32,000 bases of DNA from an unidentified eubacterium SCB49 (GTDB taxonomy: Bacteria > Bacteroidota > Bacteroidia > Flavobacteriales > Flavobacteriaceae). The stretch is from assembly GCA_000170815.1 (NCBI GenBank), contig ABCO01000002.1, forward strand, positions 292,810 through 324,809, read 5' to 3'. Under the pieces are notes generated by a model that was not told the DNA's origin, ran no database searches, and saw nothing but the letters and a program-made list of their open reading frames with translations. Positions within the stretch are counted from its first letter, which is position 1, and every line of letters begins with the position of its first letter. Positions 443 through 13,737 of the stretch are shown here, piece by piece. The position numbers and the translations under genes are program-made.

Positions 443-578
443 GCTAACTTAAGCCGTATATAATTTATTGCTAGCTTCTCGCCTACTTACGAAAGTCCTC
501 GCGGACTTTCTTTGTCCGTAATGATTTACTAAATTAGTTGCTTGAAACACGCAACAAACCATATACAAACACGTTACC
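443..578 (+). repeat. T1-family attC-like repeat, copy a
   Basis: GCTAAC(443-448)..GTATATA ... central hairpin gaaagtcc-tcgc-ggactttc (491-510) ... ctaaattagttgc ... side hairpin gttgc-N9-gcaac (537-555) ... CATATAC..GTTACC(573-578). It aligns along its length with the copies at 1227, 4122, 4784, 7891 and 10313. Confidence 0.75.
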
Positions 579-587
579 TGCAAGCTT

Positions 588-650
588 GACCCGTCCTGAA
601 TAAAGGCTACATAATGTTTAAAAGTATGTAGCCTTTATTCAGGACGGGTC
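588..650. repeat. Perfect 26-bp inverted repeat with an 11-nt loop (63-nt hairpin/cruciform)
   Basis: Positions 588-613 (gacccgtcctgaataaaggctacata) are the exact reverse complement of 625-650. Loop is atgtttaaaag. It starts directly after the CAAGCTT motif that follows repeat T1-a. Confidence 0.9.
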
Positions 651-777
651 ATTTGAAAAAAACGTTTGTACATCAAATATTAACGTTTAATATGCCAAAC
701 TGAACGCTTACTAATTTAGTGTTTGAGAGCAAAAAATAACTAATAGATTTGAAAAATAATCTAAACCAAATGAAAAT

Positions 778-1134
778 ATGAAAACTGAAAAAACCCTCTC
801 AAAAATACTAATGTGGCTACCTTCACTAATAATCACTCTTTTCTTTATTCCAAACGCATTAGATAAAATATTTAATTCAAGTCAAACCGACAAAATTGTT
901 GCGAATAGCTCTGTAATGATAGCAACTGGAATATTTCTCTTAATTTCAACAGCATTATTTTTATACAATAAAACAGTACTTATCGGAACTATTCTTTTAG
1001 CATTTTATATGACCTTTATAGTGTTTATTCATATGTATAAAGGAAAACCATACGAAGTTGCAATTCTAATTGTTATGGCTACAATATTTGCATCGTACAT
1101 AAGAAAATCGAACTTATATTATCAAAATAAATGA
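778..1134 (+). CDS. Small 4-TM membrane protein, DoxX-like
   Basis: 118-aa ORF with an ATG start and four hydrophobic segments. Size and topology resemble the DoxX family. It is bounded by T1 repeats. Confidence 0.6.
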   Translation: MKTEKTLSKILMWLPSLIITLFFIPNALDKIFNSSQTDKIVANSSVMIATGIFLLISTALFLYNKTVLIGTILLAFYMTFIVFIHMYKGKPYEVAILIVMATIFASYIRKSNLYYQNK

Positions 1135-1226
1135 TAAAACTAATCTTTCATTTACAATGTAAAATGGATATAACAGCTGAAATTGACATTCTTACAGCAG
1201 ATGAACTAAGTAAGTGAAAAAACGTT

Positions 1227-1357
1227 GCACAACACCGGGTATAATTCATTGCTAGTTCTAGCCTACCTGGAAATTCCTTCGGAATTTTCTCTGGTTCGTT
1301 TTAGTTTACTAACTTAGTTGCTTAACCACGCAACAAATCATATACAAAAACGTTGGC
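1227..1357 (+). repeat. T1-family attC-like repeat, copy b
   Basis: CACAAC..GGTATAA ... central hairpin gaaattcc-ttc-ggaatttt(c) (1270-1289) ... ctaacttagttgc, side hairpin gttgc-N8-gcaac (1317-1334) ... CATATAC..GTTGGC(1352-1357), then CAAGCTT. Confidence 0.75.
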
Positions 1358-1439
1358 AACAAGCTTCGAAATTCGTCAATTAAAGAAAAATAGATGATTA
1401 AATTGATAATTTTGTATCTTTGATAAAAAGCTGAATAAA

Positions 1440-1673
1440 ATGAATTTAGACGCTCGAAAAATAGAATTTGTACAAGAATTTTTAAAACTTCAAAGCGAAG
1501 AAGCAGTTTCACGTCTCGAAAAAATATTGAGAAAAGAAAAAAATGCTTCAGACGAGCGAATATTCGAACCTATGACTCAAGATGAACTGAATAAAAGAAT
1601 TGATAAATCGGAATCTGACTTTCGAAACAATCGATTTAAAAGCAGTTCTAAACTCTTAGCCAAGTACGAATAA
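1440..1673 (+). CDS. Putative antitoxin (addiction-module component) paired with the downstream ParE/RelE-like gene
   Basis: 77-aa helical, charged ORF. Its stop overlaps the next gene's ATG in a TAATG junction (1671-1675), the typical type II TA arrangement. Confidence 0.6.
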   Translation: MNLDARKIEFVQEFLKLQSEEAVSRLEKILRKEKNASDERIFEPMTQDELNKRIDKSESDFRNNRFKSSSKLLAKYE

Positions 1674-1989
1674 TGATATTGGAAATTATTTGGTCTGAAT
1701 TTGCTGAAACTCAACTTGACGAAATTTATGAGTATTACGAGAAGAAAGCAAGCCCTCAACTGCTAAAAAACTTCTAAAAGGAATTATCAACGAACCTGAA
1801 AAGTTGATAAAAACACCATTAATTGGACAGGAAGAAGAATTACTAAAACAAAGAGAAATTCATTATTGATATTTAATATTCAAAAACTATAAACTGATTT
1901 ATTCTGTGGATACGGAAAACGGATTTATAAAAATTGCTGACGTTTTTGACACACGACAAAATCCACCAAAAATAAAACAGACAAAATAA
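1673..1989 (+). pseudogene. ParE/RelE-family type II toxin, inactivated by a frameshift near 1757-1762 and an in-frame TGA at 1867-1869
   Basis: Frame A from the ATG at 1673 reads MILEIIWSEFAETQLDEIYEYYEKKASPQ..., then stops at 1775. Frame B continues ...AKKLLKGIINEPEKLIKTPLIGQEEELLKQREIHY*YLIFKNYKLIYSVDTENGFIKIADVFDTRQNPPKIKQTK*, ending at 1989. Joined, the two frames give a typical ~100-aa ParE/RelE toxin. Confidence 0.75.
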
Positions 1990-11487: not shown

Positions 11488-11492
11488 CAAGT

Positions 11493-11582
11493 AGTAACCA
11501 TATATATCATTAATAGCTAGCTTTAGTCGCTTATAGCAACACAACCTCATCACATTATAAATAGAAGCCTTACGAGCAAGCT
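11493..11582 (+). repeat. T1-like repeat, copy g (short and degenerate; central part missing)
   Basis: AGTAAC..ATATATATCATTAATAGCTAGC aligns with T1 5' ends. The 3' part TCATCACATTATAAA...CAAGCT resembles the L'/R'/CAAGCTT end. Confidence 0.4.
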
Positions 11583-11607
11583 AAACAAATGTCACGCTGA
11601 AAGATAA

Positions 11608-12132
11608 ATGGATAAAACATATTACGCTGAAAAAGCACTTTATATTGGAGCTACTGGGATTATATGTGCTTTTTGTTTTTTTGCACCAACCCTCTTCACA
11701 TTTAAAAGTTCATTAATTAAACAGAGCGGAACTGTTGAAAATTTAAAAACTGACTATATTCAAGTAGAGAGTTCAAGAGGTTCAAAAAGTATTAAATCTG
11801 AACTAAAATTTACTCTTAATTCAACTCAAAGTATTTATGTTCTAATGAAGAATATTGAACAAAGTAGGTTCAACGAAAGATTTGAAGATTTAGAGAAACA
11901 ATTAAGAAATTCTGAAAGAGCAACAGTCTGGATAAAGGAAAGCCAAAAAGAAGAATATAAACCAACTGTTTTTCAAATAGCTGACAGTAGCGGAAAGATC
12001 ATTTATGATTTTGAAGAAGCTAAAAATCATTCCAGATTCGGGTTTTTAGTTTCTTTTGCCTTAGGCATTTTTACAATCGGAATTTGGTTGAGACATAAAT
12101 ACTGGAAAAAGCCAGCTCACAACAATCCATAA
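11608..12132 (+). CDS. Hypothetical membrane protein (N- and C-terminal TM helices)
   Basis: 174-aa ORF with an ATG start and hydrophobic segments at both ends. Confidence 0.6.
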   Translation: MDKTYYAEKALYIGATGIICAFCFFAPTLFTFKSSLIKQSGTVENLKTDYIQVESSRGSKSIKSELKFTLNSTQSIYVLMKNIEQSRFNERFEDLEKQLRNSERATVWIKESQKEEYKPTVFQIADSSGKIIYDFEEAKNHSRFGFLVSFALGIFTIGIWLRHKYWKKPAHNNP

Positions 12133-12133
12133 A

Positions 12134-12298
12134 TTTAACAATTAGGCTGTTGTTTAACCTAAATATAATCTACACATTAAGAGCCATCTACATATTCATA
12201 AGTAGAAAAACAAATAACCAGGCAACCTTTTCATAAATATTCACGTCTATTAAGATAAGGGATAAATCATCATTTATTCTCAAACGCATACCATTGAT
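12134..12298 (+). repeat. Strongly degenerate T2-like intergenic element
   Basis: TTTAAC..AGGCTGTTGTTTAACC resembles the T2 5' part (GGGCAGTTGCTTAA / GAGTGTTTAACCC). The 3' CGCATACC-ATTGAT is a weak L'/R' analogue. Confidence 0.3.
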
Positions 12299-12321
12299 AA
12301 ATTCAAACAAAAAATGTGATT

Positions 12322-13527
12322 ATGAAATTAACCAAACTACTATGCTCTCTTATTGTACTTACTTTATTAAACAGTTGTGCATCTTCAAAAATAAATAAAA
12401 CCTTAAAGCAAGGAAGTATCGTTCAAGAAGACTTTAAAACGACTATCCCATTTGAATACCGTCATGGACTTATTATCCTTAAAGTAACTATTGAAAATGA
12501 AATATATGACTTTATTTTAGACACTGGAGCTTCTAATGCACTTTCAAAAGAATTAGCAGAGAAACTTAACGTTACGTCTTTAGGTAGCGAAAATATAACT
12601 GATGTTCACAAAACTAGTCAACAACTTAACTATACAAAAATAGACGATATTGAAATAGGAGGTATTCATTTTAAGAATACTATTGCAGCTATATCAGATT
12701 TTAATAGTGGAGAACTTGCCTGTTTAAATGTTGATGGTTTTATTGGTTCTAATTTAATGCGATTTGCGGTATGGGATTTCGATTTTAAAAATCAGATAAT
12801 TACCATAACAGATGATGAACAAAAATTAAATATTCCAACAGACGCTATAGAATCAAAAATGTTTATTGGTACAGCAGCTAGTCAACCATCTATTATTAGC
12901 TATATAAATGGTGATAAGGCATTAAATAATATGATTGATTTAGGAAACAATTCTACACCACATTTATCGTATTTAGATTTTGTAAAACAAAAAGAATCTA
13001 ATAAAATCACGAAGTATATATTAGGTTCTGGATATTCTACTATTGGTATGTATGGAAAGGGGAAAAAGAGAGACGAGATATCTGCTAAAGTAGACGAGAT
13101 AAAAATAGGTGATCATATTATAAAAAATAAAGTGATGAGGGTGAAAGATGGTAAAACAAACCTCGGAATTTCATTTTTTAAAAATTATAGATTAATTTTA
13201 AACTGGGAAGCACGAAAGGTGAAAATGATTCAAGAAGGTGATACTAATAATACAACATTAAATCATTTTGGGTTTATACCTAGTTTTAATGGAAATAAAG
13301 TAGTTGTAGATTTTATATATAATGATACTGCTGCATCAAAAGTGTTACAATTTGGAGATCAAGTATTACAGATTAATACTATTGATTTTACAAACATTAC
13401 TGATAACAATAAATGTGATTTTTTTGACAATGGTATTATACCAAAAGAAGTTGATGAAATAACCATTAAAATATTACGTAATGGTGAAACATTAGAATTT
13501 CAGCTAAAAAAAACGTTGTTACTTTAA
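12322..13527 (+). CDS. Lipoprotein with a retropepsin-like aspartyl protease domain and a C-terminal PDZ-like domain
   Basis: The ATG at 12322 gives MKLTKLLCSLIVLTLLNSCASS (lipobox). FILDTGASNALS is the D-T/S-G-A aspartic protease motif, and LQFGDQVLQINTIDF is PDZ-like. Confidence 0.7.
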   Translation: MKLTKLLCSLIVLTLLNSCASSKINKTLKQGSIVQEDFKTTIPFEYRHGLIILKVTIENEIYDFILDTGASNALSKELAEKLNVTSLGSENITDVHKTSQQLNYTKIDDIEIGGIHFKNTIAAISDFNSGELACLNVDGFIGSNLMRFAVWDFDFKNQIITITDDEQKLNIPTDAIESKMFIGTAASQPSIISYINGDKALNNMIDLGNNSTPHLSYLDFVKQKESNKITKYILGSGYSTIGMYGKGKKRDEISAKVDEIKIGDHIIKNKVMRVKDGKTNLGISFFKNYRLILNWEARKVKMIQEGDTNNTTLNHFGFIPSFNGNKVVVDFIYNDTAASKVLQFGDQVLQINTIDFTNITDNNKCDFFDNGIIPKEVDEITIKILRNGETLEFQLKKTLLL

Positions 13528-13570
13528 ACAAAACGAACTTAAGAAAAGAGTAGAAAACCAAAAGCTCGCA

Positions 13571-13737
13571 CACAACATTGTATATAAAAAAAATAGCGTT
13601 AGTCTTTGCTAATACCTTAATCTGGGAACATCTGGAGAGTTGCTAAATTTTAAAATTTGGCTCAGTGTTCCATCCCAAAAGAAACCGCTAATTTTTAGCG
13701 CTACTTTTTATATACAAATCCGTGATACATTTGAAAA
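13571..13737 (+). repeat. T2-family attC-like repeat, copy F (last element of the array)
   Basis: CACAAC(13571-13576)..GTATATA ... GAGTTGCTAAATTTTAAAATTTGGCTCAGTGTTCC ... hairpin cgctaa-ttt-ttagcg ... GCTACTTTTTATATACA..GTGATA(13732-13737). The 3' 50 nt are close to copy C. Confidence 0.65.

Follow-up and report, generated by a model that had tools for sequence, protein, structure and literature searches.

The 32,000-nt stretch of the genome of the marine flavobacterium SCB49 (Flavobacteriaceae) that we analyzed (hereafter the window; positions given without a locus name refer to it) carries an array of small genes at positions 454-13727. The array comprises about 16 open reading frames (ORFs), all on the plus strand, with 11 profile-detected and two degenerate structured repeats between them. 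A previous interpretation of the same DNA, made without database searches (the sequence-only reading), had described an integron-like array of about 14 plus-strand units. The co-oriented array was confirmed; there are about 16 ORFs, some units contain two genes (1440-1990 and 10466-11487) and some sites are decayed. We did not find the array's own recombinase within the window. The results described below indicate that the window very probably contains the distal part of a chromosomal cassette array, which belongs to a Bacteroidota integron-like capture system with a Xer-like recombinase.

Iterated nhmmer profiles of two repeat subfamilies matched the window 13 times, with all matches on the plus strand and inside 446-13729. 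The same profiles found no copy among the core genes that occupy the 18 kb right of the array (window 13.8-32 kb). Further, the type-1 pattern was found four times in the window, compared with 0.00 expected from shuffles. The repeats (type 1, ~130-150 nt; type 2, ~115-215 nt) follow the grammar xxCAAC-3nt-GTATATA ... CATATAC-6nt-GTTGxx, with a spacer of 5-6 nt before GTTGxx; the four boxes are designated R'', L'', L' and R' in this order. The inverted boxes lie where the sequence-only reading had placed them (GGCAAC 5511-5516, AA and CGTATAT 5519-5525 against ATATACG 5605-5611, GAGCC and GTTGCC 5617-5622). Its statement that the AAC and GTT triplets are conserved was roughly correct: the box grammar was kept in 11 of the 13 window copies, and the R' GTT was lost in copies E, L and P (to GCT, TTT and GTG, respectively). 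Both subfamilies occurred in at least 12 flavobacterial genera. That reading had contrasted a cassette array with repeats scattered in both orientations. Neither scattering nor mixed orientation was observed in the window and more than 60 loci (~1 Mb), where each match lay on the cassette strand within its locus and the copies were always clustered.

Folding of the repeats and limits of the mobile unit

The secondary structure of the repeats was examined in 51 type-1 copies from many genera, in which pairs were counted on the structure R''-L''-inner stem-L'-R'. The R stem (CAAC/GTTG) was paired at 93%, the L stem at 90% with compensatory changes in 8/9 pairs, and the inner stem at 95%, compared with just 26-40% in shifted registers. 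Variants of L'' and L' covaried (GGCTAT/ATAGCC, GTGTAT/ATACAC, ATATAT/ATATAT and TGCAT/ATGCA). The covariation score was 0.261 versus 0.129 in shuffles, and none of 500 shuffles attained 0.261. The internal loop between the R and L stems was asymmetric (3 nt versus 6 nt), and only 45% of the positions outside GTTG were paired with the repeat's own tail. The bottom strand formed the more stable fold in 49 of 52 type-1 and 19 of 26 type-2 copies. Among top-strand mismatches, A.C was found 34 times and G.T 14 times; A.C corresponds to a G.T wobble on the bottom strand. The folding bias and the excess of A.C speak for a bottom DNA strand that folds like integron attC and against a structure of the sense RNA. 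Note that the covariation and strand statistics overstate independence because the copies are mutually related.

If recombination between G and TT of the R' box passes through a circle, R'' of a given cassette should pair with the first bases of that same cassette, that is, with the tail of the previous repeat. We compared the 7 nt beyond GTT, anchored on the repeat model, in 51 cassettes. The reverse complement of R'' matched the start of its own cassette at 5.06/7 positions (28/51 cassettes at 6/7 or more), whereas it matched the tail of its own repeat at 3.18/7 and random tails at 2.48 +/- 0.19 (z = 13). Two window examples agree at 10/10 nt each: GTTGCCCACA, the reverse complement of R'' of repeat D, recurs as the tail of repeat C, and GTTGCCAGTA, that of R'' of repeat E, as the tail of repeat D. 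For cassette 1, the reverse complement of R'' is GTTGTGCAAC, with which the homologous cassette of another genome begins. Since R'' is complementary to the tail of the previous repeat, the tail moves with the cassette that follows it. This complementarity is the footprint of units that can circularize from GTT to GTT, and the crossover lies at or beside GTT. The central claim of the sequence-only reading, an integron-like array, thus held up with respect to folded attC-like sites, GTT crossover and circular-cassette footprint.

In the proposed model, the mobile unit would run from TT of one GTT to G of the next and contain one ORF, sometimes two, and a site of 115-215 nt. The ends of the site would pair through the R box (CAAC/GTTG), an unpaired 3-versus-6-nt spacer, the L box (GTATATA/CATATAC) and further stems. 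As in integrons, a folded single bottom strand would be recombined by one strand exchange and resolved by replication. Cassettes would leave as circles by recombination between one site and the next, R'' pairing over ~10 nt with the first bases of its own cassette, and new cassettes would enter at the GTT of an attI-like site. The enzyme would be a dedicated Xer-like tyrosine recombinase of ~395 aa, which is encoded at the array head in the orientation of the array. SCB49 itself would encode this recombinase to the left of the window, followed by CCTTTTATCCGGAA...TCTCTATATAACSAGTT.

Recombinase, attI-like site and cassette turnover in related genomes

An array head was found in a metagenome-assembled genome from NCBI in the context of an IS110 element (L065). 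It encodes a tyrosine recombinase (Phage_int_SAM_4 and Phage_integrase domains) co-oriented with the array. The sequence GAGAACTTTGTTCTCTATATAACGAGTT lies directly 3' of the recombinase and is followed by cassettes and repeats. This copy is broken by one TGA, and an intact version with 97% identity exists. The recombinase family is large and well conserved (~395 aa), occurs in Tenacibaculum, Polaribacter, Lutibacter and others, and carries generic annotation only. When recombinase contexts were sampled by protein homology, each gene was followed by a co-oriented array with the repeat families of the window (14 repeat copies in Tenacibaculum salmonis, at least 8 in Polaribacter pacificus and several in a metagenome lineage). 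The linkage of recombinase and repeats was thus seen in four lineages, namely L065, Tenacibaculum, Polaribacter and a metagenome population. The recombinase was co-oriented with the array in L065, L066, L067, L068-71, L085 and L086.

Between recombinase and array, we found an attI-like site consisting of CCTTTTATCCGGAA, ~16 nt, the palindrome GAGAAC-TTT-GTTCTC, TATATAAC, CA and GTT. The site was conserved in 17 loci, and the sequence after it differed in nearly all; six of the 17 represent one identical attI lineage, and two of these have the same first element. In the lineage with an identical 73-nt attI region, six different first-cassette starts were found. A metagenome scan with the attI motif gave 11 further loci with different sequences after GTT, except one that ends at the motif.

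Four assemblies from one study encode an identical recombinase protein and share 100.00% identity over 11,405 nt, then split exactly after the attI GTT. Their first cassettes are an ORF-less element, DNA methylase plus HNH, and a sulfate transporter. Two of the four variants begin with a common element and part at the GTT that closes its repeat, and the second cassette of one variant sits behind a different first cassette in another. Genomes thus differ in cassette content, and so do members of one natural population of a related lineage. In two variants (L068 11406-11872 and L071 11406-11872), attI is followed first by a 467-nt unit that has no ORF and closes with a repeat; L071 has it twice (11406-11872 and 13811-13946), with another cassette in between, and the unit could represent an empty cassette or a site that was duplicated. 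The cargo of related arrays included restriction-modification systems, transporters and OLD-type nucleases.

A search with the protein of cassette 1 gave 50 loci of Flavobacteriaceae and Cyclobacteriaceae (the source genome was outside the searched representatives). These loci were nearly devoid of shared synteny, the neighborhood being different almost everywhere. Type-1 or type-2 repeats were found in 19 of the 50, all co-oriented with the gene, and homologues of cassette 1 lay in unrelated contexts at 45 other loci. In Xanthomarina (L009), a cassette-1 homologue is followed by a repeat and a homologue of ORF 7427-7789, an order that differs from that of the window. There, the cassette-1 homologue follows an extracytoplasmic function (ECF) sigma/anti-sigma operon; a solitary half-site, GTATAATAC-GTT-GTGTAACA (9860-9880), is all that precedes it, and the small array of 2-4 cassettes has no recombinase within 10 kb. 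The DinB cassette protein (4304-4771) belongs to a 143-member cluster at 90% identity across Flavobacteriia (Maribacter, Aequorivita and Pareuzebyella), Cytophagia (Algoriphagus, Cyclobacteriaceae) and Saprospiria (Phaeodactylibacter), which points to recent transfer across classes. No recombinase was found near the mid-array loci sampled through cassette 1. Conserved array neighbors were also considered as candidates for the recombinase by all-against-all clustering, which gave only beta-lactamase-fold hydrolases, DUF6090 and sensor kinases.

These results bear on whether the repeats have any role in mobility. They could be elements like repetitive extragenic palindromes (REP), miniature inverted-repeat transposable elements (MITE) or terminators in a variable island, as they are intergenic, structured, high in copy number and conserved across genera, some contain nested palindromes, and some small clusters have no recombinase nearby. 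However, the repeats occur in a single orientation and in arrays only, with none in the 18 kb of adjacent core genes; they are consistently tied to one recombinase family and an attI-like site; population variants lose homology exactly at GTT; and the circular-cassette footprint is present. A repeat family without a role in mobility is thus largely refuted, and we give it hardly any credence.

To classify the recombinase, we compared it with curated models and structures. NCBIfam placed it in the Xer/IntI superfamily, below all curated cut-offs (XerA, 204 versus 220 bits; XerD, 175 versus 330), and it scored 193 bits versus a cut-off of 265 with the integron-integrase model TIGR02249 (split match) and 127 versus 435 with PRK15417. 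Its alignment to the archaeal XerA structure was contiguous, and that to VchIntIA (2A3V) was in two pieces: IntI residues 184-242 (59 residues) were skipped, where the recombinase has 16. The IntI-specific insertion has been described at this segment and reported to be essential for integron function. The catalytic residues R, K, H, R, H and Y are invariant across the family alignment. Besides a SAM-like core-binding domain and the catalytic domain, the protein has an additional domain at its N-terminus. The N-terminal ~100 aa have no Pfam match and are predicted to fold as beta-beta-alpha-beta-beta-alpha-beta (a confident AlphaFold model, which is good for the N-terminal and core-binding domains only). 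Its fold matches were weak (E 0.04-0.1; YciH/SUI1 and SMARCAL1 HARP) and were not used. Fold matches of the core were XerA, IntI and XerD, and the closest relatives in both sequence and fold were XerA and XerD.

A classical integron array, or a cluster of attC sites lacking an integrase (CALIN), with true attC sites and a canonical IntI encoded elsewhere, would also account for the AAC...GTT grammar, the co-oriented cassettes, the toxin-antitoxin module and the tight packing. Reviews list Bacteroidota among the phyla with integrons, without detail. In a tblastn search of plasmid records with the flavobacterial recombinase, IntI1 matched in two pieces at ~38% identity, and Bacteroidota relatives matched at 34-41%. 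However, the linked recombinase has 16 residues in place of the 59-residue IntI segment and lies below both integrase cut-offs, and the 3/6-nt box spacing and the length of the sites are unlike those of classical attC. Further, no IntI-like gene was detected in ~0.88 Mb around the 50 arrays (a crude tblastn with an approximate IntI1 query, in loci without array heads), and In0 elements and one integron of Salinibacter were all that the IntegronFinder 2.0 survey listed for Bacteroidetes. We consider a classical integron or CALIN very improbable. Among the options offered by the sequence-only reading, a Bacteroidota analogue comparable to rAID-1 was therefore retained, and a sedentary integron or CALIN was not, as the linked recombinase is Xer-like, has no IntI domain and is co-oriented with the array.

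Several points weigh against the integron-like capture system that we favor. The array head of SCB49 lies beyond the window, so that recombinase and attI are known from relatives only. For several small arrays of other genomes, no recombinase lies within 10 kb, so that action in trans must be assumed. The IntI domain that reads extrahelical bases in integrons is absent, and the recombinase would need another way to choose a strand. The inner sequence of the repeats is much more conserved than the variable region of classical attC, and many copies have no end-to-end fold in minimum-free-energy prediction. The proposed single-strand mechanism draws on the covariation and strand asymmetry of related, non-independent copies.

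Some of these points would fit a model with the same cassettes and the same recombinase, in which duplex DNA recombines at a compact 3' core (L'-spacer-GTT), as in Xer/dif, IMEX (integrative mobile elements exploiting Xer) and pdif modules, and the pairing serves transcript stability or termination. The copies without an end-to-end fold, the recombinase nearest to XerA/XerD without the insertion that recognizes folded attC, and the duplex-type palindrome GAGAAC-TTT-GTTCTC of the attI-like site agree with such a model. However, partner sites share GTT/GTTG only, which is too little for two ordered exchanges with a 6-8-bp overlap. Further, L''/L' and the inner stems covary, the favored bottom strand is antisense to the mRNA, which speaks against an mRNA structure, and the complementarity of R'' to the start of its own cassette would have no role if only the 3' end were used. 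Duplex recombination is therefore unlikely in our judgment.

Features of the SCB49 array and its IS110 element

The features of the array and of its left edge are listed in Table 1. The G+C content of the array is 28-34%, and that of the flanking genome is likewise low (29-39%). The cassette products are mostly uncharacterized small secreted or membrane proteins; recognizable products are ParE (in a decayed toxin-antitoxin module), DinB, DUF6438, DMP19, T5orf172, bPH_2 and an Asp protease/PDZ protein. None of the 16 window cassette products belonged to the SUKH/SMI1, Tdi1 or Imm families, PADLOC gave no match for ten cassette proteins, and an Rfam scan of the window gave chance matches only.

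Table 1. Features of the SCB49 window (positions in the 32,000-nt window)
Feature	Position	Strand	Details
IS110 left part	1-453	-	Transposase N-terminus 3-230; non-coding left end 231-451; CT core (AG on +) 452-453
Repeat A, type 1, 5'-truncated by IS110	454-578	+	L'' GTATATA 456-462; L' CATATAC 560-566; GTT 573-575; R'' beyond window
Perfect hairpin, 32-nt arms	587-651	.	Inverted repeat
Cassette 1	574-1352	+	ORF 778-1134 (118-aa membrane protein SCB49_03174) and repeat B
Repeat B, type 1	1227-1357	+	R'' GCACAAC 1227-1233; GTT 1352-1354
Cassette 2	1353-2208	+	Antitoxin-like ORF 1440-1673, decayed ParE-like toxin 1673-1990 and repeat C
Repeat C, type 2	1998-2213	+	Embedded GC-rich hairpin ~2101-2127; GTT 2208-2210
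Cassette 3	2209-3006	+	ORF 2222-2797 (191 aa, lipoprotein-like, no Pfam match) and repeat D
Repeat D, type 2	2817-3011	+	R'' GGGCAAC 2817-2823; GTT 3006-3008
Cassette 4	3007-4263	+	ORF 3024-4112 (362-aa membrane protein, no Pfam match) and repeat E
Repeat E, type 1	4121-4268	+	Nested palindrome CCCGATAGCTATCGGG 4172-4187; R' mutated to GCT 4263-4265
Cassette 5	4264-4923	+	DinB-family ORF 4304-4771 and repeat F (4783-4928, type 1)
Cassette 6	4924-5617	+	ORF 4951-5493 (180 aa, signal peptide) and repeat G
Repeat G, short type 2	5510-5622	+	Clearest end-to-end hairpin
Cassette 7	5618-6892	+	DUF6438 lipoprotein ORF 5654-6694 and repeat H (6703-6897, type 2)
Cassettes 8 and 9, fused by decayed repeat	6893-8022	+	ORF 6915-7301; ORF 7427-7789
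Degenerate type-2 remnant	7282-7428	+	Between cassettes 8 and 9
Repeat J, type 1, 3' end decayed	7890-8027	+	Closes cassette 9
Cassette 10	8023-8716	+	DMP19-family ORF 8043-8543 and repeat K (8556-8721, type 2, 5' box decayed)
Cassette 11	8717-10436	+	ORF 8745-10304 (519 aa, C-terminal T5orf172/MUG113 domain) and repeat L
Repeat L, type 1	10312-10441	+	GTT to TTT
Distal cassettes, decayed sites	10437-13724	+	ORFs 10466-10930 and 10939-11487 (bPH_2)
Distal ORF	11608-12132	+	Between remnants 11492-11600 and 12117-12262
Distal ORF	12316-13527	+	Asp protease and PDZ
Terminal repeat P, type 2	13570-13727	+	R' GTGATA; array end

Three to four intergenic elements are decayed (7282-7428, 11492-11600, 12117-12262 and the 3' end of 7890-8027); those at 11492-11600 and 12117-12262 were recognized by eye only and missed by the profiles. 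The ParE-like toxin of cassette 2 is broken by several stops, and the 77-aa ORF upstream of it is intact. Between repeat A and cassette 1, the 32-nt-arm hairpin and ACCTGCAAGC (576-585) stand where cassette 1 should begin with the expected 8 nt GTGCAACA (by comparison with L008, L009 and L027), in the region 576-651. As GTTACCTGCAAG also opens cassettes elsewhere (L012), this region could be what is left of a deleted cassette, or a small insertion. Repeat G is separated from the start codon of the DUF6438 lipoprotein by a stretch that includes a run of 15 A (5632-5646), which is possibly prone to slippage.

Some type-1 repeats contain nested 16-nt palindromes (CCCGATAGCTATCGGG or CCCGAAGCGTCGGG), which were found at 4172-4187, 4832-4847 and 7945-7960, and also in L022, L010 and L017, all at one position of the central hairpin. 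These palindromes and the GC-rich hairpin of repeat C look like small secondary insertions within the sites. The -7 promoter consensus of Bacteroidetes is TAnnTTTG. The sequences TATATTTG or TACATTTG on the plus strand of type-2 repeats (2871-2878, 6758-6765 and 8607-8614) fit this consensus, and the motif could drive the downstream cassette.

The left edge of the window is occupied by part of an insertion sequence (IS) of the IS110 family. Elements of this family encode a DEDD transposase with a Transposase_20 domain behind it, lack terminal inverted repeats and insert site-specifically at a short core. The 76-aa transposase fragment of the window matched PF01548 (DEDD_Tnp_IS110) with 24.5 bits, a score that truncation keeps below the cut-off; PF01548 and PF02371 are both present in homologues. 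Contigs of Winogradskyella, Psychroserpens and Psychroflexus end in partial copies of homologous transposases, indicating that this is a multicopy IS. In three further independent insertions, the same IS lay within or at the end of small-gene arrays with the same repeats, on the opposite strand. All four insertions have a CT core on both sides, and their target, CAACAA-AG-ACGTGTATA, corresponds to R''-spacer-L'' of a type-1 repeat. The sequence-only reading had taken GCTAAC (443-448) for R'' of the first repeat copy. The junction alignments instead assigned it to the terminal sequence of the IS, so that repeat A is truncated at ~454 (its nhmmer match spans model positions 10-131 only) and the array runs on leftward.

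The non-coding left end of the element (231-451) is a candidate bridge-RNA region. A segment of the left end matches the target flank and varies with it (TATATACG versus TATACACG; AATATATACGC in the window, ATTATACACGC in L061 and L065), as would be expected for a bridge-RNA guide. The element was always antiparallel to the array (window 1-453, L058, L061 and L065 at ~9650-11050), and the array of a Rufibacter plasmid also has an antiparallel IS110 (L085 15977-17035). No IS110 gene was found in the 50 other array loci. Like intI, the IS110 gene is divergent from the array, and it was considered as the array recombinase; it was rejected because it belongs to a multicopy IS with a fixed target and CT cores that is missing from these 50 arrays. 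We conclude that the IS110 element is a parasite of the cassette system, which targets R''-L'' of type-1 sites.

This element resembles the IS1111-attC subgroup, which is likewise of the IS110 family and occupies a fixed position, in one fixed orientation, inside the sites of cassette arrays. It differs in its target, which is R''-spacer-L'' of the flavobacterial type-1 site with a CT core, and in its layout, as the non-coding RNA region lies upstream of the transposase (IS110-type, not IS1111-type).

Relation to known systems

Integrons are regarded as rare to absent in Bacteroidetes, and the only comparable system there, rAID-1, has been framed as an immunity-gene store of gut Bacteroidales with an undefined mechanism. 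The abundant marine Flavobacteriaceae carry large arrays with a definable recombination grammar, an attI-like entry point and live population polymorphism. We found no description of this flavobacterial branch or of its mechanism in the literature, although the coverage of our search was incomplete. If the proposed mechanism is correct, integron-type capture reaches a major phylum and a recombinase without the IntI domain, and the action of a Xer-like enzyme on folded single-stranded sites would be testable with sequence-defined substrates. Further, there would be a large unexplored pool of mobile cassettes, including restriction-modification and other defense genes, and simple rules to annotate arrays that are now labeled 'hypothetical proteins' beside 'tyrosine-type recombinase/integrase'.

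As in Xer/dif, IMEX and pdif systems, the recombinase is closest to XerA/XerD and modules are bounded by recombination sites. In contrast to these systems, the sites are long, folded and asymmetric, with no 11-6-11 dif-like core seen by eye, and the recombinase is a dedicated enzyme with an extra domain, which is encoded at the array head at varying chromosomal positions.

With integrons, including sedentary chromosomal ones such as the Vibrio superintegron with its VCR repeats, the arrays share co-oriented cassettes without promoters, and sites that are homogeneous within an array and carry the R''/L''-L'/R' boxes with AAC/GTT. Further common features are the crossover at GTT, an attI near the recombinase at which cassettes insert, the bottom-strand folding bias and an R'' complementary to the cassette start. 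They also share toxin-antitoxin cassettes and attack by an IS110-family element aimed at the recombination site. In contrast to integrons, the recombinase lacks the IntI-specific domain, has the extra ~100-aa N-terminal domain and is co-oriented with the array, whereas the integrase of integrons is divergent and is accompanied by a Pc promoter. The spacers are 3 and 6 nt, whereas the attC model has 5-nt spacers and extrahelical bases, and the sites are longer with conserved inner sequence. The missing IntI domain and the co-oriented recombinase exclude the system from the integrons sensu stricto.

rAID-1 was defined by a 5' XerD-like recombinase at least 44% identical to BF9343_RS08045, at least two co-directional downstream genes of low G+C content and repetitive intergenic motifs, with orphan immunity genes as cargo; homologues of more than 50% identity were restricted to Bacteroidales (Ross et al., 2019; 10.1101/471110). 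A resemblance to integrons was noted in the rAID papers (2019 and 2025 preprints; 10.1101/471110 and PMC12247911), which leave crossover, attI and folding undefined. The arrays described here likewise have a 5' tyrosine recombinase co-oriented with an array of short genes and conserved intergenic repeats. In a rAID-type locus of Parabacteroides (L086) with the immunity genes Tdi1 and SMI1/KNR4 (SUKH), the repeats read xxGGTAAC-2/3 nt-stem...stem-4/5 nt-ATTAxxx, and each R'' shows 8-11 nt of complementarity to the tail of the repeat that precedes its unit. Its recombinase also lacks the IntI insertion and aligns contiguously with the flavobacterial enzyme (36% identity over the core-binding and catalytic domains, N-terminal ~80 residues unalignable; L086 served as a proxy for BF9343_RS08045). 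The two differ in boxes (CAAC/GTTG here, TAAC/ATTA in rAID-1), site length (115-215 nt versus ~55-75 nt) and hosts (marine Flavobacteriaceae versus gut Bacteroidales), and the cargo of the window is not dominated by immunity genes against type VI secretion systems. By its sequence, the flavobacterial recombinase probably falls short of the identity required for rAID-1 and, together with the different cargo, this probably places the arrays outside its definition. In operation, the arrays resemble both integrons and rAID-1.

A Rufibacter (Cytophagales) plasmid (L085) carries a recombinase gene and eight co-oriented small genes with compact sites of 65-75 nt, which have the same grammar and 3/6-nt spacers. 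The shared grammar, the R'' rule and the kinship of the recombinases make the flavobacterial, Cytophagales and rAID-1 arrays look like branches of one Bacteroidota-wide class. On balance, we lean toward the view that Bacteroidota hold a widespread integron-like platform class of their own, with a Xer-like recombinase that has a different N-terminal domain instead of the IntI domain, folded bottom-strand attC-like sites, crossover at GTT and an attI. Such a system would even have an IS110 of its own, aimed at its sites, with a guide region that follows the L'' box. If so, this is a class that current integron finders do not report in the phylum, and integron logic either arose on two occasions or is far older, and far wider in range, than the IntI clade.

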